Shown: piece after piece, positions 3,867-58,913 of the stretch
Layout of the letters: each line of letters begins with the position of its first letter
Position numbering within the stretch: the stretch's first letter is position 1
IMG/VR virus record: IMGVR_UViG_3300017991_000012
Span: 1-64,000 of that record
Length of the DNA: 64,000 nucleotides
Origin: a virus
Strand: one strand, 5' to 3'
The notes under the pieces: generated by a model
What the model was told of the DNA's origin: nothing
Seen by the model: only the letters and a program-made list of their open reading frames with translations
The model's database searches: none
Position numbers and translations under genes: made by a program

Positions 3867-4475
3867 CTAGAACAACGTCCCGTTCTCGACGTAGAAGCCC
3901 CGCTGCTTCCACGACCAATGCTCGACTTCCAATCCTGCTTTCTCGAATCTCGCGCCAAGATCCTGCCACCGATGGCAATCTGGTGGCTCGCTCTCGCTGC
4001 ACATGATCGCCACCACGCCCTTGTCGCACATCTTCCTCACCTTCAGCACTCCTTCGAGCCTCTGAACCTCCGTCCACTCGTGCAGCCCTCCAAGCACTTT
4101 CCCCATCCACACGTACTCGATCTCGCCCAGCTCGATCGCATCCATCAGCGCTGGCCTGTTGAATTCCGGACGCCATCGGCTGTAGGGCCTGCTCCTCACA
4201 TCCACCAAGACCTTCACCTTGAACCTTTGCAGAATCCCCACCAGCTCTGCAAGCGGACGATTCCCGTACCCGATCGTCAGAATCTGCATCGTCTTCGTCC
4301 TTTCCTCATCGACCTCGATGCTCTCCAGATACTCCTCCGCACTCTCTCGCTCTCCCGGCGAGATTTCACGCTTCACTCTCAGTCTCGGTCCGTTCGACTT
4401 GCCTTCTTGCCAGGCTTTCCTGGCATGCATCGCTCTCTGCCATGCTTCGTATGGAAGCTTTATCTCGGTAGGCAT
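3867..4475 (-). CDS. DUF488 family protein with N-terminal extension
   Basis: TIGYGNR, VLVDVRSRPYSR..PEFNR, LGG, MCSE..P..CHR. Confidence 0.85.
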   Translation of the reverse strand: MPTEIKLPYEAWQRAMHARKAWQEGKSNGPRLRVKREISPGERESAEEYLESIEVDEERTKTMQILTIGYGNRPLAELVGILQRFKVKVLVDVRSRPYSRWRPEFNRPALMDAIELGEIEYVWMGKVLGGLHEWTEVQRLEGVLKVRKMCDKGVVAIMCSESEPPDCHRWQDLGARFEKAGLEVEHWSWKQRGFYVENGTLF

Positions 4476-4498
4476 CGCCTCTCCCTGTGGGTCCAAGA

Positions 4499-4537
4499 CG
4501 TATTGAGTATACCCCACACGTCTCACTTTGTCAAGTG
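4499..4537 (-). promoter_or_regulatory. early promoter with GTCTTGG leader
   Basis: CACTTGACA-17-TATACT-6-GTCTTGG. Confidence 0.85.
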
Positions 4538-6684: not shown

Positions 6685-6924
6685 CTACGCTCCTGGCGTG
6701 ATCATCTGGCTCCTGAGCACCATCGGCTTGACCACGATCGTCACGCCCGCCTCTGTCTCCAGCGTCCACTCGACTCGGTTCAGATCACAATGCCACGTTC
6801 TGCTCTTGTCCACGTTCACGCCTCGGTTGTTCGCCGCCGCCATGCCGCTCATCATCGCATGGTCCATCTTTTCGAACAGCCAGTGATCCTCCTGCACCTC
6901 GCTGTAGTAATGCAGCAAGTACAT
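6685..6924 (-). CDS. hypothetical protein
   Basis: Preceded by AGGAGGACGGACGATG. Confidence 0.65.
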   Translation of the reverse strand: MYLLHYYSEVQEDHWLFEKMDHAMMSGMAAANNRGVNVDKSRTWHCDLNRVEWTLETEAGVTIVVKPMVLRSQMITPGA

Positions 6925-6935
6925 CGTCCGTCCTC

Positions 6936-7214
6936 CTATCTAAGCCTGCCTTCTCCGAAGTTCTCGCCCTTCAGCGCCTGCGCCATCTGCGTCTCGCGCT
7001 TCATGATCTTATCCCACTCCTGATCGGCCTCGGCCAGCAGCTGCCTGCTCGGTAAACAGCAATGCTCGCTGTAAGCCAACACGTCCTCATCTGGAAATCC
7101 TCGCCCGCCACAGCAGGCGCACTCCTCGCCTTTGCGTTCTGCGTTGGTTCTCTCGTTCAGCTCGTACCTCAGCGCCTCGATCAGATCTCCGAACAGCCTC
7201 GTCTGCCTGTCCAT
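6936..7214 (-). CDS. hypothetical protein
   Basis: ORF packed in the operon. Confidence 0.6.
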   Translation of the reverse strand: MDRQTRLFGDLIEALRYELNERTNAERKGEECACCGGRGFPDEDVLAYSEHCCLPSRQLLAEADQEWDKIMKRETQMAQALKGENFGEGRLR

Positions 7215-7215
7215 C

Positions 7216-7479
7216 CTATTCCCTCCCGCTCTTGATGATCGTCTGTGCCATGACCTCGATCACCATGTCCCGAAGCTCTTCCGTCTGCGTCTCGTGGCTC
7301 AGCTCCTCGTCGTCCTCGTCTAGCTTGTCGAAGTACTCGGTCTCGACCCACACGTCCCAGCTCCCGCCTGCCGGGCAGAGAAGCACCTGCAGGTCCATGT
7401 ACGTCTCGCCATGCAGCGCTTCGCTGATCGCATCCGCCGCCGCTTGCGTAATCACGTTCGTCAGCTTGAATCCTGCCAT
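7216..7479 (-). CDS. hypothetical acidic protein
   Basis: Preceded by AGGAGGACGGACGATG. Confidence 0.65.
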   Translation of the reverse strand: MAGFKLTNVITQAAADAISEALHGETYMDLQVLLCPAGGSWDVWVETEYFDKLDEDDEELSHETQTEELRDMVIEVMAQTIIKSGRE

Positions 7480-7497
7480 CGTCCGTCCTCCTTTTTT

Positions 7498-7734: not shown

Positions 7735-7760
7735 TTCGTGCTCCTGTGTTGTAACCAAGA

Positions 7761-7798
7761 CATATATACTATACCACACGGATTCGGTTTGTCAAGTG
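7761..7798 (-). promoter_or_regulatory. early promoter with GTCTTGG leader
   Basis: CACTTGACA-16-TATAGT (with TGn extension)-6-GTCTTGGT. Confidence 0.85.
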
Positions 7799-7876: not shown

Positions 7877-8647
7877 TTACGTCTCGGCTTCGACTTTCGC
7901 TTTCACCGTCTCGTAGTATTTCTTGACGATTTCGACCATCCTGACCAGGATAGCGCTGATCGACCGGATGTCGTCTACCTTCTTCACCGTCCGCATGATC
8001 TCCTTGAACTTCGCGAAGTGCTGATACTCTACCACGTCCACGGTCCTGGCATCGCGGCTGATCAGCTCCAGCACCTGATTGTAGTCCTCCATTTGGTTCT
8101 GCAGGAACGTCATGTTCAGAACCTCGAATTCGATCGGCAAGCAGATCTCCTCGCTCCTGACGTGGCTGAACTCGAAATTGAGATCTGCCAGCACGCCGGT
8201 CGCGATCTTCGCCTCCACATCCTTGATGCTGTCGTAGATCTCCTTCAGAATCTGCTGATCGTCCTCGCCGTTCAGCGCGTTGTGCGCCAGCTGCTTGCTC
8301 TTGATCTGGTCTTCAGTCAGCTCCTCTGGCAGCACCATCACGTACAGCTCCGTCACGTTCGCCATCCTCGCAGCCCTTACCCTGTGGTGGCCGCTGATGA
8401 TCGGAAATTGCAGATTGCCCGCCGGGTTCAGTTGCTTTGTGCATAGCGGCATGCTCTCCAGCCTATTGTCCGTTGCGATATTCGCCTGCAGTCTTTTGAA
8501 CCGCTCAGCGCTCATCACCCTCGCATTGCGCTCCTGCTCTCGCGTCAGGTCTACGTGCACTTTCCAGATCTCAATTCCTGTATCGAGCGTTATCGCCAAC
8601 TGCGGATCTGGCCTGTCAACCGGCTTGCTCGGTTTCTGCTCTGGCAT
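7877..8647 (-). CDS. ParB/Srx-like N-terminal domain protein
   Basis: NARVM, IISGHHRVRAA, QLAHNAL.G.DD. Confidence 0.85.
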   Translation of the reverse strand: MPEQKPSKPVDRPDPQLAITLDTGIEIWKVHVDLTREQERNARVMSAERFKRLQANIATDNRLESMPLCTKQLNPAGNLQFPIISGHHRVRAARMANVTELYVMVLPEELTEDQIKSKQLAHNALNGEDDQQILKEIYDSIKDVEAKIATGVLADLNFEFSHVRSEEICLPIEFEVLNMTFLQNQMEDYNQVLELISRDARTVDVVEYQHFAKFKEIMRTVKKVDDIRSISAILVRMVEIVKKYYETVKAKVEAET

Positions 8648-10064
8648 TTTCCCTCTCCTGAAGCTCTCGCAGGAACAGCTGCACGCAGTCCGCATACGTC
8701 CTGTCGTAGAACTTGCACTCGTACATGATTTTGTACAGCCCGTTTTTCATCTTCTCGCGCTTGACCACGTCAAGCAGCCCGTTGTTCAGCTTCACCTTCC
8801 TGTACCTGCTCAGGCACGTCGTCCTGAAGCCCTGGATCTCGAAAATCCTGTTCGTCTTCAGCGCGTGCCGCATGATCTGACCTTTCAGGAACTCCTGGCA
8901 CGTTATGGCCATCATCAACAGCCGGTTCGCCGTCGGGTACTTCTTCATCGGCGCATTAAACCCATAGGTCTCGAACACGTACTCGCTTCCTTCCTCCATG
9001 CGGCGGAGGTGGCCTGTGTGCAAGCCAACGATTCCGAAGATCTGTCCGTCTATGAGCATCACGAAATAATGCTCTGCCAACGTCGCGCCCAGCTTGTGCG
9101 CCCACAGATCGCGGTAGTAGCTCGCAACGTTGTGGTCCACACCTTTGCCGATGAAACTCACCTTGCTGTCTGGCCGAATCTCGTAATCCTCCGAGATGAT
9201 CGGAAGTGGCAGTCTTTCGCTTTCCTTCCACGGCCTCTGCCATGCGATCCCGTCGAATTCCGGTGCGTCCTTCAGCACCTCCGGCTTGGTTATCATGCAG
9301 TAGCTGTAGCTCACCGGGCTGAACTGCAGGCCCCAGAACAAATCCTCTTCTGGCAGATCGTCCTTCAGGTTGTACCTCGCCCATATGTACGTCGCCGGAC
9401 TTTTCTTGCTCTCCAAGTATAGATTCCCGAACTCGTCGTCGAAATCCATCTCCGGCGCCGTGAAGCCCCACGTCAGCTCCGGCTCGAAGTCGAACATCTT
9501 GGTATAGCCTTTGCGATACGCAGGCGGATGTACCAGCACCAGCGTTCGTTCGTCGTACTCGGCCCTCACCACATCGCGGATGTCCGCCATCTCGTACTTC
9601 ATCCCGCCAAGTTTTTCCTTCTGTTCCTCAAGTTGCGTGCATAGGCTCGCCAGGCACATATCTCGCTTGTCTATAAAATACTGCCTGTACTGGGTGAGGT
9701 ACATCTTGTTTGATTTCAGTTGACGCACGCGCATCAGCCATAGCAGGTAGGCTGCTTTTGCTACTTCTCGCTTGAATTTCCTGTATGCTAACTCGTGCTC
9801 TTCGTCCAGCTTGATCGGAAGCTCGTCGATCGGCCTTCCTGCGTACCAGCACCCAAGCACGGCACTGAACACGCTGATGTCGCTGCACTCCGCCTGCTTC
9901 GGATCAAAGCCCGCCGCGATCGCACCTCGTACCAGACAGAACTGTCCCGCGCATGGCACAATCAACCTGTCGTACCTATGCTTGATCTTCGCCATCAGCG
10001 ACGTAAGCATATCTCGCTCAGGCTGAGGATTCACACCCTGGAATATCTTGCCCATCGGATTCAT
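8616..10064 (-). CDS. putative DNA adenine methyltransferase-like / DNA modification protein
   Basis: SAM-binding-like LIVPCAGQF and SDIS; HPPAY at the DPPY position; extra C-terminal domain; adjacent to ParB. Confidence 0.6.
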   Translation of the reverse strand: MNPMGKIFQGVNPQPERDMLTSLMAKIKHRYDRLIVPCAGQFCLVRGAIAAGFDPKQAECSDISVFSAVLGCWYAGRPIDELPIKLDEEHELAYRKFKREVAKAAYLLWLMRVRQLKSNKMYLTQYRQYFIDKRDMCLASLCTQLEEQKEKLGGMKYEMADIRDVVRAEYDERTLVLVHPPAYRKGYTKMFDFEPELTWGFTAPEMDFDDEFGNLYLESKKSPATYIWARYNLKDDLPEEDLFWGLQFSPVSYSYCMITKPEVLKDAPEFDGIAWQRPWKESERLPLPIISEDYEIRPDSKVSFIGKGVDHNVASYYRDLWAHKLGATLAEHYFVMLIDGQIFGIVGLHTGHLRRMEEGSEYVFETYGFNAPMKKYPTANRLLMMAITCQEFLKGQIMRHALKTNRIFEIQGFRTTCLSRYRKVKLNNGLLDVVKREKMKNGLYKIMYECKFYDRTYADCVQLFLRELQERENARAETEQAG

Positions 10065-10069
10065 AGGTT

Positions 10070-10144
10070 TGGTTGCGGGTGCAGGAGTCGAACCATGCGT
10101 CTTCCGGCGCAGAACCGGGTATTCTACCGTTGAACTATCCCGCA
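10070..10144 (-). tRNA. tRNA-Gln(CTG), atypical or degenerate
   Basis: TGCGGGA TA GTTC AACGGTA GAAT A CCCGG TTCTGCG CCGGA AGAC GCATGG TTCGACT CCTGC ACCCGCA A CCA; cloverleaf with encoded CCA. Confidence 0.8.
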
Positions 10145-19092: not shown

Positions 19093-19513
19093 TCGTCTTT
19101 CCCCTCTTCTCCGAATACTCTGGCTCTACAACCTTCGATGCCGCAAACCTCAATTCCTTAGGCGGCACCAACACCTCGCACCGATCAAAATGCACATTGC
19201 CGAGAATCGTTATCTCTCCACAGCAACTCGCATCAAAATGCGCAGATGACATTATGGTCAAACTGGCAGCGCAAATCTTCTCCTGGTTCACCGTGACGTG
19301 ATGGCAGAGCACAACATCATCATGCGGCCCTGGCACAGATCGCCGATCCCATGTACACGCATCGCTCCACAGGCCGGACTTGCGCGATGTGAATACCTTG
19401 CCGCCATGCGTAGGCGCTGCCGTGATCTGGCTCGGTATGTACTGCCAGCCCTTCGGCATGAATAGCGCCACGGCAGAAAGGCTCGCGCCCTTCAGAAAGG
19501 TTCGCCTCAGCAT
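19085..19513 (-). CDS. twin-arginine-signal protein with G8-like N-terminal fragment
   Basis: MLRRTFLKGA; SGLWSD..TW....VP...DDV...H.VTV. Confidence 0.6.
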   Translation of the reverse strand: MLRRTFLKGASLSAVALFMPKGWQYIPSQITAAPTHGGKVFTSRKSGLWSDACTWDRRSVPGPHDDVVLCHHVTVNQEKICAASLTIMSSAHFDASCCGEITILGNVHFDRCEVLVPPKELRFAASKVVEPEYSEKRGKTNG

Positions 19514-23573: not shown

Positions 23574-23680
23574 AAAAGGCCCTCCCCAGCTGGACGGACC
23601 AACAGAGGATGCTGGTAGGAAGCTGGGTCAGGCCAGGAATAAGTCCGGTTGAATCCTTCCTCTGTTTTTTCCGTCCAGGT
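23574..23680 (-). promoter_or_regulatory. structured 5' leader (long inverted repeat, possible attenuator)
   Basis: CTGGACGGA..AACAGAGGA (23590-23609) is inverted at 23658-23678. Confidence 0.55.
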
Positions 23681-30598: not shown

Positions 30599-30649
30599 AA
30601 AAAAAGGGCAGGTCTGATCAAGATGTTCGCCCGGTTGCCAGACCTGCCC
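30599..30649 (-). terminator. intrinsic terminator with long loop
   Basis: GGGCAGGTCTG/CAGACCTGCCC stem followed by T7. Confidence 0.75.
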
Positions 30650-30654
30650 AGCGG

Positions 30655-30855
30655 CTACCCCTCCACACCGCCCTTCGGTGGAGGACCCTTTTCTTCCGCG
30701 ATCAATACCAGCCTGCTCTTGCTTCCGCTGTCGCTGAACTCCTGCTCCAGCTTGGCCGATGCAATCGGCACGGCCTTGCCCCCGACAAGGACAAACATCT
30801 CAAGCCCGCCCGTCTCCTTGCCCCTTGCCAACGTTTTCAGCTGCTTGACCTGCAT
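30655..30855 (-). CDS. hypothetical protein
   Basis: GGAGG RBS; MQVKQL start. Confidence 0.55.
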   Translation of the reverse strand: MQVKQLKTLARGKETGGLEMFVLVGGKAVPIASAKLEQEFSDSGSKSRLVLIAEEKGPPPKGGVEG

Positions 30856-31130
30856 TTTGCCCTCCATTCTTTGACGACATTGAAAAGCTCGATTCCCATA
30901 CCAGCCTGGCACCCTCTTCTCGCCAGCCTCTTTGTCGCAAACACTGCGAACGCCTGCGGTACGAAATGCCTCACGCTCCGCAGTTCGCCAACCTCGATAC
31001 TGCGTACGACACCTGCCATGATGCCACTCACCAGCCAGTCGCTCATCGCCTGCCGGCTCACGCCAAGCATGCTGGAGAATTGGGACAGGCTGATGCAGTC
31101 CTGGCCTTCGATCTGTCGTGGATTTGTCAT
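30837..31130 (-). CDS. HTH DNA-binding protein (excisionase/Cro-like), probably leaderless
   Basis: ISLSQFSSMLGVSRQAMSDWL..G; ATG lies 7 nt after the -10 box. Confidence 0.7.
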   Translation of the reverse strand: MTNPRQIEGQDCISLSQFSSMLGVSRQAMSDWLVSGIMAGVVRSIEVGELRSVRHFVPQAFAVFATKRLARRGCQAGMGIELFNVVKEWRAKCRSSS

Positions 31131-31137
31131 GAACACT

Positions 31138-31169
31138 ACCATACACCCCTGGTCCCCGTTTGTCAAGTG
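31138..31169 (-). promoter_or_regulatory. promoter
   Basis: CACTTGACA-17-TATGGT. Confidence 0.75.
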
Positions 31170-31521
31170 AGTTGTGTTGACAAAGTCGGCCTCAACATAT
31201 CGTCCCTGACCAAACCACTGCTGAAAGCGCCAGTCCATTACCCTTCGTGGCACACCTGCCGCGCCTGGTCCATCCAAGGCTCTGCAAAGCATCCTCATCC
31301 CGCCTGGCGCATCCCGTCGTGTCATACTATTCCACTGCGGGCCATGTCGCACTTAGCCACTGCGGATCACACCTGGCCTACCCAATCAAACAGCATCACC
31401 CCACTTCTTTCCTCGGTGGCATCTTTTCTCCTTTGCCGGAAAACAAAACAATCGAGTAGTACCACAGTCACCGCTCAATTCATTGGCCCTCCTTCCGAAC
31501 GATGTTGCTACTCGTTCACAC

Positions 31522-31654
31522 AAAAAAGCCGGAGATGGTCTTGGTCACTCAGGAGACCCGCTATGTGTAGCAGGTTTTGATATGACTTCCGACCCTCGCG
31601 GGTTACGGCATCTCCGGCAAGATTCTCAGCGCTTCCTCCTGATCAGTGCAAGAC
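31522..31654 (-). ncRNA. putative antisense regulatory small RNA (C4/CI-like architecture)
   Basis: Own promoter; 10-bp closing stem followed by U6; two internal hairpins; loop complementary to early leaders. Confidence 0.75.
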
Positions 31655-31692
31655 AACACTATTCTACTCCGCAGTCTCCACTTTGTCAAGTG
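31654..31692 (-). promoter_or_regulatory. promoter of the small RNA
   Basis: CACTTGACA-17-TAGAAT-6-GTCTTG. Confidence 0.85.
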
Positions 31693-31696
31693 AAAT

Positions 31697-31963
31697 TCAC
31701 GCTAGATCGTAGAAAGTCGAAACCCCGACCTTGAACACCGCGCACAGTCCAGCCAGCACATCGCCACGCGGCTGAACCCGCCTGCCGTTCAGTAACTCGC
31801 GGATCACGTACGGCCCGCACATAACGCCCCTCATCCCCAGCTCCTTCGCCAGGTCATACGCATCCAGCTTGTGTCTGCGCATCAGCGCCTCCAGCTTCTG
31901 CCGCTTGAACGGCGTCACCTGCGCCATGCGCTTCATCGTGCCCTTTGTCGATTTCTTTGCCAT
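31697..31963 (-). CDS. XRE-family HTH regulator
   Basis: L..LM....L...DLAKELG...I..L.NG...P....L..L...F.V....F. Confidence 0.75.
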   Translation of the reverse strand: MAKKSTKGTMKRMAQVTPFKRQKLEALMRRHKLDAYDLAKELGMRGVMCGPYVIRELLNGRRVQPRGDVLAGLCAVFKVGVSTFYDLA

Positions 31964-34537: not shown

Positions 34538-34778
34538 GGCTTCCTCCTCCTGACTTTGCGTAATGTTCACGCGACCAAGACTTTCTGGGCATCTCCCTCG
34601 GATACCCTCACAATCTTCATGTGCTCGCGGCAGATGTGCCTGCGAATCGCCCGTTCGCCGCCAAGACGTACGGCCTGCGTCAGGTCCTGTTTGCACACCT
34701 CACAGCGTACTGTGATCGTGCTCATGTTCGGCCCACCAACCTCGACGCTGATCATCATCACTCCTCCGATCTGGTTGA

Positions 34779-34810
34779 ATCCTACCCCACCGCCTCCGGT
34801 TTGTCAAGTG
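34779..34810 (-). promoter_or_regulatory. promoter
   Basis: CACTTGACA-17-TAGGAT. Confidence 0.75.
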
Positions 34811-36489: not shown

Positions 36490-36510
36490 AGCTTCTCCTT
36501 TTAACCAAGA

Positions 36511-36548
36511 CATATGGAGTATACCACACATGCCTGGTTTGTCAAGTG
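36511..36548 (-). promoter_or_regulatory. early promoter with GTCTTGG leader
   Basis: CACTTGACA-16-TATACT-6-GTCTTGGT. Confidence 0.85.
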
Positions 36549-36574: not shown

Positions 36575-37009
36575 CTACAGAATCCCCTCCTCCTGCATCG
36601 ACAGATAGCCGTCGCCTACGATCACGCTGTCCAGTAACCTGATCCCCAGCAGCTCCGCGCACTCCTTCAGCCGCTTGATCAATACTCGATCCTCGTGGCT
36701 CGGCGTCGTGTCGCCACTCGGATGATTATGCACGAACGCGATCGCAGCCGCTCCGTCAACAATCGCCGGTCTGAATACCTCTCGTGGATGCACGAGACTC
36801 GCGGTCAGCGTTCCCAGGCTCACCAGGTGCTTGTCGATCAGCCGGTTCTTCTGGTTCAGCGTCACGACCAGGAACGCCTCCTGGCCCAGCTTTGCCGCGT
36901 CTTTCACGGCCTTCACCAGGTCCCTGGCGTTCTTCACGTACGGTCCCTCGGTCTCGCGCACCTGCATCAGCTTCGCGTTCAAGCTCACTCCGAAGTAGCC
37001 TGCGCTCAT
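36575..37009 (-). CDS. radC: RadC-like JAB domain protein
   Basis: E.F....LN.KN, GTL..SLVHPREVF, HNHPSGD..PS.ED. Confidence 0.92.
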   Translation of the reverse strand: MSAGYFGVSLNAKLMQVRETEGPYVKNARDLVKAVKDAAKLGQEAFLVVTLNQKNRLIDKHLVSLGTLTASLVHPREVFRPAIVDGAAAIAFVHNHPSGDTTPSHEDRVLIKRLKECAELLGIRLLDSVIVGDGYLSMQEEGIL

Positions 37010-37021
37010 CGTCCGTCCTCC

Positions 37022-37246
37022 TCACACGCGGATTGCGTCCAGTCCCAGCTCGTCAATCAGCGCACAATAGGCCTGGTACAGATCCTGGCTCGTGAAGCTC
37101 AGGCTCTTGTCCTGCGCTCCGAACCAGCAGTACAGGTACGAATGCACGATCGCCAGCTTGCCGGAATCAGCCAACACGTAGTAGTGATCGTCCCGTCGCG
37201 CCTTCTTCGCCAACTCCTTGATCTGCTCCTTGTTTGGTCCTGCCAT
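37022..37246 (-). CDS. hypothetical protein
   Basis: AGGAGGAAGGACGATG start. Confidence 0.6.
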   Translation of the reverse strand: MAGPNKEQIKELAKKARRDDHYYVLADSGKLAIVHSYLYCWFGAQDKSLSFTSQDLYQAYCALIDELGLDAIRV

Positions 37247-37257
37247 CGTCCTTCCTC

Positions 37258-37452
37258 CTATGCAACCGCGGCTGTGGTGATCACCAGCCGACCGTCCCTG
37301 ACCGCCTTCTCCAAGTGCTTGCACCACTTGGCGTCACGCCGGCTGAACTTCCAAGCCGGGCACGTGCAGTACACCACGTCGTCTGCTCCGCGCCTGATCT
37401 CGTACTTCTTGCCGGCCTTGCTCGCGCTTTCGACCTCGAATAGTACTGTCAT
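37258..37452 (-). CDS. SWIM zinc-finger protein
   Basis: YCTCPAW...CKHL. Confidence 0.8.
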   Translation of the reverse strand: MTVLFEVESASKAGKKYEIRRGADDVVYCTCPAWKFSRRDAKWCKHLEKAVRDGRLVITTAAVA

Positions 37453-37463
37453 CGTCCGTCCTC

Positions 37464-37655
37464 CTAGATCAGCCCGCAGATCTGACCCATGTATACGTTG
37501 TAGGCACAGACCTCGTCGTCCGTCATCTCGGCCAAGACACTCATCTCGGCCTCTTCGTACTTATCCCACGTGCTCTCATCGTCATCATCCCAGCCACGCC
37601 TTCTGGCCTCGTCGAGCACGATCCTTCTGGTCTCTTGTCCGCTGATGCTCTTCAT
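37464..37655 (-). CDS. hypothetical protein
   Basis: AGGAGGACGGACGATG start. Confidence 0.6.
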   Translation of the reverse strand: MKSISGQETRRIVLDEARRRGWDDDDESTWDKYEEAEMSVLAEMTDDEVCAYNVYMGQICGLI

Positions 37656-37666
37656 CGTCCGTCCTC

Positions 37667-38041
37667 CTATGCGTTGTCAATCGCTCGCGCCAGCCCAATA
37701 ACCTCTTGTTCAATCTCGTAGTGCCTGATCTTCTCGGCGCCCTTGCCAACCACGTTCTTGCACGAAAAGCAGTATGTTTCTCCCTCAATGCACTGTTGCA
37801 CCCAATGCGCTATCTCGTGTGCGATCGTTAGGTACGACGCTCCAATCTTCACCCTGATGATGTGCTCTGCGAGCAGGTTGTCCTTCGTGAAGCCCTTGGC
37901 TATGTATTCGCCTTCTGCTCCGCGCACGCCACCGACCTCGATGGTTGGGTCGTTCTCGTCCGCTATGCCATAGAACCTTCTTGCGCGTTCGGCCCAGGCC
38001 TCTATTTTGAAGGCTTTGATTTCCTTTTTTCCACTCTTCAT
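37667..38041 (-). CDS. HExxH zincin-like protein, first gene after the array
   Basis: TIAHEIAHWVQ. Confidence 0.7.
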   Translation of the reverse strand: MKSGKKEIKAFKIEAWAERARRFYGIADENDPTIEVGGVRGAEGEYIAKGFTKDNLLAEHIIRVKIGASYLTIAHEIAHWVQQCIEGETYCFSCKNVVGKGAEKIRHYEIEQEVIGLARAIDNA

Positions 38042-38068
38042 GTCGCTCTCCTGAGTAGTGAACCAAGA

Positions 38069-38106
38069 CAATAGTAGTATACACCACAGGCCACGTTTGT
38101 CAAGTG
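38069..38106 (-). promoter_or_regulatory. early promoter with GTCTTGG leader and upstream A-tracts
   Basis: CACTTGACA-16-TATACT-6-GTCTTGGT. Confidence 0.85.
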
Positions 38107-38828: not shown

Positions 38829-38870
38829 AATAAAAATGGAGGCCTATCGCCGGGCGAACGATAGGCCTCC
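38829..38870 (-). terminator. terminator ending the late operon
   Basis: GGAGGCCTATCG/CGATAGGCCTCC 12-bp stem followed by a T-rich tail. Confidence 0.8.
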
Positions 38871-58308: not shown

Positions 58309-58913
58309 AGTATCCTCGCTTTGATTTCGAATTCACCAGCCAGCGGCGGTAGAAACTCACCATCTTGCTTCGGCCCATTCGCCGGATCGTGGAACACGGT
58401 ATCGATCGGCGCATCCTCGAATACGACCTCCGCATGTGCTGTGTTCATGATCGGCTTCAGCTTGCTGATTTCGACCTTGTGCTGAACCCCGCTCTTTTTC
58501 ATCGCACGCAGTACGTCATCGACCAATACCGGCGCCGTGTGTCCGGTCCATTTCGTCCAGGCGAACCGCAGCCCGAACTCCACCAGCCGCAGCTCGTCAT
58601 CGCTGAAGTTCGGTATCCTGATCCAGACCATGTTCGTCGACGCACGCATCATGTTCTCGACAATCTGTCTTGCGTCATCGACGCTCGGAACATGCTCCAG
58701 AAAATGGAACGCCAGGTACGTGCTGGCTTCGATCAGATCCGTCTGTCCATCCACCGGGCAGCAGAGAAAATGATAGCCCTTGTGCTGAATGGTCTGCTCG
58801 TACTCACGCTTGCAGTCTATTGCCAGACAGGCCTCAGGCGAGTAGCCAAACTGCTTGCACGCCATATCCATCGCGTTGCCGTTTTTGCATCCAAGATCCA
58901 CTGCGCTCAGCAT
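58305..58913 (-). CDS. class I SAM methyltransferase
   Basis: VDLGCKNG, HFLEHVP. Confidence 0.8.
   Translation of the reverse strand: MLSAVDLGCKNGNAMDMACKQFGYSPEACLAIDCKREYEQTIQHKGYHFLCCPVDGQTDLIEASTYLAFHFLEHVPSVDDARQIVENMMRASTNMVWIRIPNFSDDELRLVEFGLRFAWTKWTGHTAPVLVDDVLRAMKKSGVQHKVEISKLKPIMNTAHAEVVFEDAPIDTVFHDPANGPKQDGEFLPPLAGEFEIKARIL

Follow-up and report, generated by a model that had tools for sequence, protein, structure and literature searches.

A structured phage RNA unit complementary to the leaders of dispersed operons: a candidate trans-acting antisense RNA

Introduction

The CI RNA of P4, a small RNA involved in immunity, base-pairs with a repeated site that occurs twice in phage transcripts, and the target details of the c4 RNA of phages P1 and P7 were reportedly described by Citron and Schuster in 1990. 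To our knowledge, the phage antisense RNAs described so far (c4, CI, sar, OOP) each have a single target, located close by. Among the trans-encoded small RNAs (sRNAs) of the Hfq class, GcvB and RybB have their own promoter, an intrinsic terminator ending in a U tail and a short accessible seed for a motif that many mRNAs share near the Shine-Dalgarno (SD) sequence. Here, we describe a predicted small RNA of an uncultured phage from marine sediment (IMG/VR virus record IMGVR_UViG_3300017991_000012), which is encoded on the minus strand at 31522-31654 of the analysed stretch of 64,000 nucleotides (nt; bases 1-64000 of the record, hereafter "the window") and which carries an inverted copy of the leaders of other operons of the same phage. 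In mechanism, it comes closest to the c4 RNA of P1/P7 and the CI RNA of P4; c4 blocks translation by pairing around the ribosome-binding site from structured loops (PMC12197685).

Like c4, the unit described here is a small structured phage RNA with stem-loop-displayed patches and a bipartite target that includes the ribosome-binding site, the pairing being a prediction in this case. Whereas c4 resides in the same operon as its target, a single antirepressor gene of temperate plasmid-prophages, the RNA studied here comes with a promoter of its own, and its three to five candidate targets are dispersed. P4 CI is processed from the transcript under its control and brings about premature termination, whereas the putative targets in our case are the 5' ends and SD sequences of separate operons. 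Unlike in the c4/CI class, most target sites are located 5-27 kb away in other units, and only the site at 34581 is part of a transcript that possibly reads into the RNA. The unit would be a new arrangement of the c4/CI kind, with an own transcription unit, dispersed targets and no signs of lysogeny. With trans-encoded sRNAs, it shares its own promoter and a stem-U6 terminator, in which the 71 nt enclosed are unusual; in contrast to GcvB and RybB, the regulon would lie in the phage's own genome and be marked from +1, and the seed is positioned in a multiloop by the terminator stem, not at the 5' end. T4 RegB cuts early mRNAs at GGAG SD sequences and thereby ends the early period (PMC3014915); the shut-off logic would be the same, but RegB is a protein nuclease, while the agent proposed here is an RNA whose recognition reaches the mRNA 5' end.

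The sequence features reported below are real and non-random, and from them we infer an RNA that would be made, would pair in vivo and would act as a repressor. In our estimate, the chances are about level that the unit encodes an antisense RNA acting in trans to shut off an early gene set defined by the shared leader.

Leaders shared by four operons and their inverted copy

The promoter of the RNA belongs to a family that is defined by an 11-bp box, CACTTGACAAA, found at nine minus-strand sites with a -10-like hexamer 16-17 bp on, all of them in the non-structural half of the genome. Four of these promoters have TATACT or TATAGT as the -10 box, followed by a variable 6-bp discriminator and then by GTCTTGG (+1 at 38069, 36511, 7761 and 4499); the small-RNA promoter has TAGAAT, and GTCTTGC at +1 31654; the remaining four (34810, 31169, 29601 and 23714) have weaker -10 boxes, unrelated starts and no leader. 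The leader-class promoters, which have the strongest -10 boxes, head blocks of small open reading frames (ORFs). Their leaders begin as an earlier note on this DNA had described: in each of the four, the second block is the SD sequence of the first gene, with the ATG 5-8 nt beyond. The four leaders are:

38047..38069, minus strand: target leader 1, +1 to SD; ATG 38041, ORF of 124 amino acids (aa)
36494..36511, minus strand: target leader 2, +1 to SD; ATG 36489, 82-aa ORF
7741..7761, minus strand: target leader 3, +1 to SD; ATG 7734, 78-aa ORF
4480..4499, minus strand: weak candidate leader 4 (GTCTTGGA...); ATG 4475, DUF488 protein

No family could be assigned to the first genes behind the targeted leaders. 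GTCTTGG is invariant in the four leaders, whereas the adjoining spacers and the 6-bp discriminators vary; since other promoters of the same family, judging by their design, work without this motif, the constraint has a reason other than promoter recognition.

The small RNA carries the inverted copy in its 3' part:

31538..31556, minus strand: anti-leader UCUCCUGAGUGACCAAGAC, nt 99-117, with the free seeds CUCC and CAAGAC; adjoins the 3' arm of the closing stem

This 19-mer is the exact complement of GTCTTGGTCACTCAGGAGA, just as the earlier note had read it. The 38069 leader pairs with 19/19 anti-leader nt, with two bulges on the leader side, while pairing amounts to 8 + 6 bp for the 36511 leader, 8 + 3 + 5 bp for the 7761 leader and 7 + 3 + 3 + 3 bp for the 4499 leader. 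Duplex energies, calculated for each partner with a 30-nt piece around the anti-leader, are as follows:

38069 leader: -33.0 kcal/mol
7761 leader: -29.1 kcal/mol
36511 leader: -28.3 kcal/mol
4499 leader: -25.0 kcal/mol
the RNA's own 5' end: -25.6 kcal/mol
four leader-free promoter starts of the same family: -11 to -15.5 kcal/mol

The match is sharply bounded: it begins exactly at +1 and stops after the SD sequence, with no homology beyond on either side. The inverted copy reproduces both blocks and the CACT spacer of the 38069 leader, and in block 1 the anti-leader agrees with the other leaders in 8/8 bases, as opposed to 6/8 (without GGT) with the RNA's own 5' end. When the four leaders were fixed beforehand by promoter geometry and the RNA was subjected to 400 dinucleotide shuffles, the mean RNA-leader duplex was -30.3 kcal/mol versus -19.0 +/- 1.7 kcal/mol in the shuffles, none of which (0/400) reached the observed value; the z-scores for individual leaders were -4.7 (38069), -6.7 (36511) and -4.8 (7761). 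When 154 candidate translation start regions are ordered by their pairing with the anti-leader, the four leaders take places 1, 3, 5 and 8. Target complementarity at translation initiation regions thus exceeds chance, as expected of a trans-encoded base-pairing sRNA, although the genome-wide energy ranking (see below) is not decisive; the data support complementarity that is specific for the leaders, from +1 to the SD sequence, of other operons.

A fifth site was found away from the promoter family. The motif GTCTTGGT has five copies on the coding strand, located in three leaders, at 4211 and at 34581; the copy at 4211, which is internal to the DUF488 coding sequence, was left out of the target count. 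The 34581 copy, which no promoter precedes, is within the final codons of a Cys-rich ORF of 63 aa and forms part of a bipartite site:

34546..34581, minus strand: internal bipartite site; GTCTTGGTC, 17 nt, then TCAGGAGG, which is the SD sequence of the DUF932 gene (ATG 34537)

The DUF932 start at ATG 34537 was confirmed by homologue alignment, and nt 99-117 can form a predicted hybrid of -27.8 kcal/mol with both blocks of the site. Because this copy lacks a promoter, the motif is not merely a promoter part; it is tied to translation starts and not to transcription starts, which favours a role at the RNA level. The spacing between the two conserved blocks ranges from 4 to 17 nt. The 63-aa ORF itself (34567-34758, minus strand) is the first gene after P34810 and has a zinc-ribbon-like CxxC...CxxH spacing; it has no annotation.

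Architecture of the RNA unit

The predicted +1, G31654, is the seventh nt after the -10 hexamer TAGAAT. The unit consists of the following parts, in addition to the anti-leader:

31661..31692, minus strand: promoter of the RNA, with the CACTTGACAAA box, -35 TTGACA (31684-31689), 17-bp spacer and -10 TAGAAT (31661-31666)
31522..31654, minus strand: predicted 133-nt non-coding transcript (nt k = 31655-k)
31619..31654, minus strand: 5' tail, nt 1-36, leader-like GTCTTG-CACT-GAT-CAGGAGG; mostly single-stranded
31609..31618, minus strand: 5' arm of the 10-bp closing/terminator stem, GCCGGAGATG, nt 37-46
31589..31608, minus strand: inner hairpin 1, nt 47-66
31544..31586, minus strand: inner hairpin 2, nt 69-111, whose basal helix uses the middle of the anti-leader
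31522..31537, minus strand: 3' arm CATCTCCGGC (31528-31537) and U6 (31522-31527), an intrinsic-terminator-like 3' end

The closing stem pairs nt 37-46 with nt 118-127 and encloses both hairpins, so that the body is a three-way junction with a minimum free energy (MFE) of -49.8 kcal/mol (z = -2.68 versus shuffles). In these respects the unit corresponds to the initial description, a stand-alone non-coding unit with a TTGACA-17-TAGAAT promoter, a 10-bp stem plus U6 closure and two inner hairpins: the transcript contains no ORF, the sole ORF nearby (28 aa) beginning within the promoter. The tail also harbours a CTGATCAG palindrome at +9 to +16 (31639-31646).

T runs of at least six are rare on the minus strand, with just nine in 80 kb, and those at 30605, 28358, 7832 and 189 are preceded by strong compact hairpins and are terminator-like, as is a similar T5 site at 38836. 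Given this rarity and the hairpins before several of the runs, the stem-U6 at 31522-31537 is very probably a terminator. There is no terminator-like site on the minus strand between 38069 and 31527, and transcripts from P38106, P36548 and P34810 therefore probably end at the RNA unit as well.

Accessibility of the anti-leader and points against the antisense role

The earlier note had taken the entire 19-nt segment to be unpaired. In the folded ensemble only its two ends are free: CAAGAC (nt 112-117) has a probability of 0.98 of being unpaired and CUCC (nt 100-103) one of ~0.9 per base, while the middle 8 nt, UGAGUGAC, pair with GUCAU.UCA. Two free seeds flanking a breathable helix would still suit an antisense RNA, as judged from the model fold.

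Several observations nevertheless weigh against an antisense role in trans. The 4499 leader is not significant (z -1.0), i.e., it pairs no better with the RNA than with shuffles. The middle segment UGAGUGAC is the base of hairpin 2, such that the probability of all 19 nt being free is 8e-6 and opening costs 7.2 kcal/mol. The anti-leader can be engaged in cis by the RNA's own 5' tail (-20.4 kcal/mol), and, as the anti-leader is located within the closing stem, such pairing would create a pseudoknot stacked on the stem. A rough sum for the pseudoknot (MFE with both segments opened, -40.1 kcal/mol, plus the -20.4 kcal/mol duplex) is in the range of the nested MFE (-49.8 kcal/mol), whereas a nested fold that forgoes the terminator stem loses 8.6 kcal/mol; the primary transcript may thus be self-masked by its 5' tail. 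Approximately 10 coding-region sites outscore the leaders in an accessibility-weighted scan of the genome, all of them by pairing with the unstructured 5' tail, and a -33 kcal/mol partner somewhere in the genome exists for 10/25 shuffled segments. The latter implies that the significance of the match is positional (5' ends and SD sequences of one promoter class) and not energetic. Finally, the two arms of the terminator are separated by 71 nt, which is atypical: elsewhere in this phage, strong terminators are compact hairpins.

The accessibility-weighted scan was IntaRNA-like (7-bp seeds, hybrid plus opening energies) and was performed genome-wide, with the leaders folded as transcripts from +1. 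The expectation that the leaders should rank top did not hold: they rank ~12-17. The three good leaders, with scores of -12.9, -12.3 and -11.5 kcal/mol, occupy ranks 2-4 when the 3' part of the RNA is considered, and the 4499 leader ranks 76th. The top tail match, at 19173-19208 (-40.7 kcal/mol), was dismissed as chance, as shuffled tails reach -40.4 kcal/mol. Raw duplex scans of the whole RNA were uninformative, being dominated by long loose duplexes.

The proposal of action in trans on operons up to 27 kb away is partly supported, in that the complementarity is specific (-25 to -33 versus -11 to -15.5 kcal/mol), though the 4499 leader does no better than chance. Calling the RNA a master switch for early genes was an overstatement for the same reason, and also in view of the four same-family promoters without a leader. 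Likewise, an RNA that contains no ORF to repress cannot meaningfully be said to autoregulate, and pairing with its own 5' end is better read as intramolecular masking.

A possible mechanism of early-gene shut-off

If the antisense reading is correct, host RNA polymerase would start at G31654 and stop at the stem-U6 (31522-31537), yielding a ~133-nt RNA; the unit would also be present as the 3' end of upstream transcripts. The junction patches CAAGAC and CUCC would then nucleate pairing, with CAAGAC contacting the first six bases of the target mRNA (GUCUUG) and CUCC contacting the SD sequence GGAG, and the helix would subsequently zip across nt 99-117. As the anti-leader adjoins the closing stem, the target's +1 base would come to stack on the stem helix, which would explain why pairing extends from +1. 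Targets would be mRNAs that start with GUCUUGG, i.e., those of operons 38069, 36511, 7761 and perhaps 4499, and the internal GUCUUGGUC...UCAGGAGG site ahead of the DUF932 gene would be a fifth candidate. Covering of the 5' end and SD sequence would block 30S binding to the first cistron, and expression of the rest of the operon would presumably be lowered through mRNA decay or polarity. As the RNA builds up, a threshold-type shut-off of a leader-marked subset of host-polymerase-dependent early genes is plausible. In that case, a single small RNA would govern, at the post-transcriptional level, leader-marked operons distributed across 34 kb of the phage genome, and early genes would be shut off by means of an RNA. 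The sigma-70-like promoters make the RNA, the leaders and compensatory mutants testable in Escherichia coli.

In a variant of this mechanism, the unit is a riboregulator that reads 5' ends and exists in two forms: as a free small RNA and as a shared 3' end that pairs with its own 5' leaders. Stacking of the first nt of the target on the closing stem would make it specific for transcripts beginning with GUCUUG, and the 3' end of P38106 and P36548 transcripts could pair with their own leaders, such that early mRNAs would be cyclised or cross-linked and shut-off would be timed. We consider this two-form variant doubtful, at roughly one chance in eight.

Other explanations

The anti-leader might instead serve a self-contained structured RNA, in which it pairs with the RNA's own 5' end as a pseudoknot on the closing stem and contributes to stability, processing or protein binding; the match to the other leaders would then be a by-product of the leader common to five promoters. 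Of the 19 nt, 16 pair with the own 5' end, the cis duplex of -20.4 kcal/mol bears no concentration penalty, its sum with the opened MFE of -40.1 kcal/mol is comparable to the nested -49.8 kcal/mol, and the 38069 leader, the own leader and the inverted copy look like variants of one another. However, the anti-leader fits the other leaders better than its own (it complements their GGT in block 1 but not the GAT at its own 5' end), whereas selection for a cis helix would predict the reverse, and both the conservation of GTCTTGG at the other promoters and the promoter-less 34581 site would be left unexplained; we hold this explanation to be unlikely. Slightly less probable still, and on a par with the two-form variant, is a shared 3'-end module, i.e., terminator and 3' untranslated region of the long P38106, P36548 and P34810 transcripts, in which the inverted leader copy would be a functionless relic of an inverted duplication or act by 5'-3' pairing within the long mRNAs. 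Upstream transcripts should indeed enter the element, as no terminator-like site intervenes between 38069 and 31527, and the helix-turn-helix (HTH) gene upstream of the RNA unit ends just 8 nt before the -35 box. The full-consensus family-box promoter with a proper +1 directly ahead is hard to explain if only read-through matters, and complementarity that is bounded by +1 and the SD sequence, with no flanking homology, points to selection and not to a relic.

Two further explanations are quite improbable in our estimation. GTCTTGG(T) at +1 could be a DNA-level element, an operator for a phage or host protein such as a flanking HTH protein, the copy in the RNA being an inverted operator. HTH genes are located on both sides of the RNA unit (HTH_26 at 31700-31960; YdaS/Cro-like at 30840-31130), and in mycobacteriophage L5 asymmetric operator-like sites are scattered through the genome. 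Yet only 7-9 bp are conserved, without a dyad; the second block is the SD sequence, the spacing of 4-17 nt suits RNA pairing with loops and not a rigid protein site, and the inverted copy carries both blocks plus the CACT spacer of the 38069 leader. The least probable of all is an arrangement of the lambda PR' type, in which a constitutive promoter produces a short terminated leader RNA, an antiterminator frees the downstream genes and any activity in trans is secondary, as for StxS. Its elements appear in order (strong promoter, short non-coding RNA, terminator) and are followed by a 350-nt gene-less stretch with two mini-ORFs, but the next genes have their own same-family promoter, P31169, the structural genes are upstream in the direction of transcription and not downstream, and the genome has no Q-type antiterminator domain (no PF06530 or PF03589 match).

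Search for relatives

The immunity-RNA flavour that the earlier note lent to the unit through its comparison with C4 and CI was not supported by domain searches of the complete genome, which revealed no tyrosine integrase or serine recombinase (resolvase) domain and a ParB_N match at a sub-threshold level only. The suggested Rfam search for C4 (RF01695) returned nothing at the gathering score (45 bits) in the window and nothing at E<=10 in the 80-kb genome, and no Rfam family at all, C4 included, was found at E<=10 in 31350-31800.

No relatives of the locus were found by blastn against 50,697 phage records. In IMG/VR, searches with the DUF932 protein alone, the portal protein and the exact anti-leader 18-mer gave no hits, and a DUF932 alignment search retrieved only loci of <=31% identity; protein identity to cultured phages is <=29%. 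Protein searches retrieved a single relative each for the DUF932 protein (P0002, 54% identity) and for the portal (P0122, 50%), both on Logan contigs. Pieces of the phage itself are present in contigs of three further sediment or seawater studies, with no differences in the pieces listed and hence no natural variants; no RNA data set is listed among the sequencing runs that contain it. The promoter-plus-leader pattern yielded seven single matches in IMG/VR, a chance number without homology, and 58 single matches in JGI metagenomes, again about chance, the sole related one being the same phage; these matches were discarded. GTDB genomes contain no instance of the stem pattern.

A parallel, unrelated in sequence to the phage studied here, may exist in Cluster K mycobacteriophages. 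Their start-associated sequences (SAS) are a conserved leader motif that includes the SD sequence and precedes 13-19 genes; the role of SAS is still called ill-defined, and the authors did not commit themselves to either an RNA or a protein as the binding partner (PMC3203893, PMC11373665). In contrast to the leaders described here, SAS adjoin start codons and not +1. Most Cluster K genomes examined contain one hairpin with an inverted SAS in the loop. In Adephagia, the sole inverted copy is located in a 432-bp non-coding gap between genes 92 and 93 (~58,560-58,740 of the record), where a very stable hairpin displays it in a 10-nt loop (CCUCCUAUCC), and the region folds with z = -6.0. The hairpin region is kept in 131 phage records, and an alignment of eight records shows seven predicted pairs that persist although both partners have changed. 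DarthP differs in the loop and SirPhilip has an unrelated loop, but the SAS consensus of both is the same; this is conservation without covariation and hence a lead, not support. A positive test of the RNA described here would suggest a widespread class and provide a concrete hypothesis for the SAS puzzle.

Genome setting and further observations

The virus record is complete, comprising 80,107 bp with 123-bp direct terminal repeats. The genome is GC-rich, and its minus strand carries all credible genes. Structural genes occupy ~39-80 kb (portal, protease, major capsid and lectin-domain tail proteins) and non-structural genes 0.2-38 kb, among them those for a DUF932 protein, a PD-(D/E)XK nuclease, a DnaC-like loader, a clamp-like protein and a Dam-like methylase, along with many small ORFs. 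The Dam-like methylase is fused to a GNAT-like domain (window 8619-10064), and GATC is 2.4-fold over-represented genome-wide (761 versus 313 expected). The sole tRNA in the window is a tRNA-Gln (CTG) at 10070-10144 on the minus strand.

Five compact strong terminators (38836, 30605, 28358, 7832 and 189, minus strand) split the non-structural half into few long units. The one at 38836 is the late-operon terminator, T7832 directly precedes P7798, and T189 is positioned just before the terminal repeat.

Among the leader-free members of the promoter family, P31169 (window 31116-31169, minus strand) has its predicted start at or beside ATG 31130 of the 98-aa YdaS/Cro-like HTH gene, and a leaderless mRNA is probable; P31169 and the small-RNA promoter share the discriminator AGTGTT. 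The sequence AGGATTCAACC occurs exactly twice on the minus strand, at 34773-34783, where it overlaps the -10 box of P34810, and at 23647-23657, ~25 nt past the P23714 start. It may be an operator; as many near-matches were found in 3/100 shuffles.

A 16-nt ribosome-binding-site cassette, AGGAGGACGGACGATG, is present in five identical copies (6922-6937, 7477-7492, 37007-37022, 37450-37465 and 37653-37668), which are placed at gene junctions and all within two leader-class operons. The cassette is not complementary to the small RNA, and a degenerate copy of it (AGGAGGAAGCGCTG) occurs in the RNA's own 5' tail. The gene-less stretch that follows the RNA terminator (31170-31521, minus strand) is not significantly structured (z -0.97), and its two mini-ORFs are located behind strong SD sequences: ATG-AAT-TGA at 31475-31483 and an 8-codon ORF at 31396-31422.

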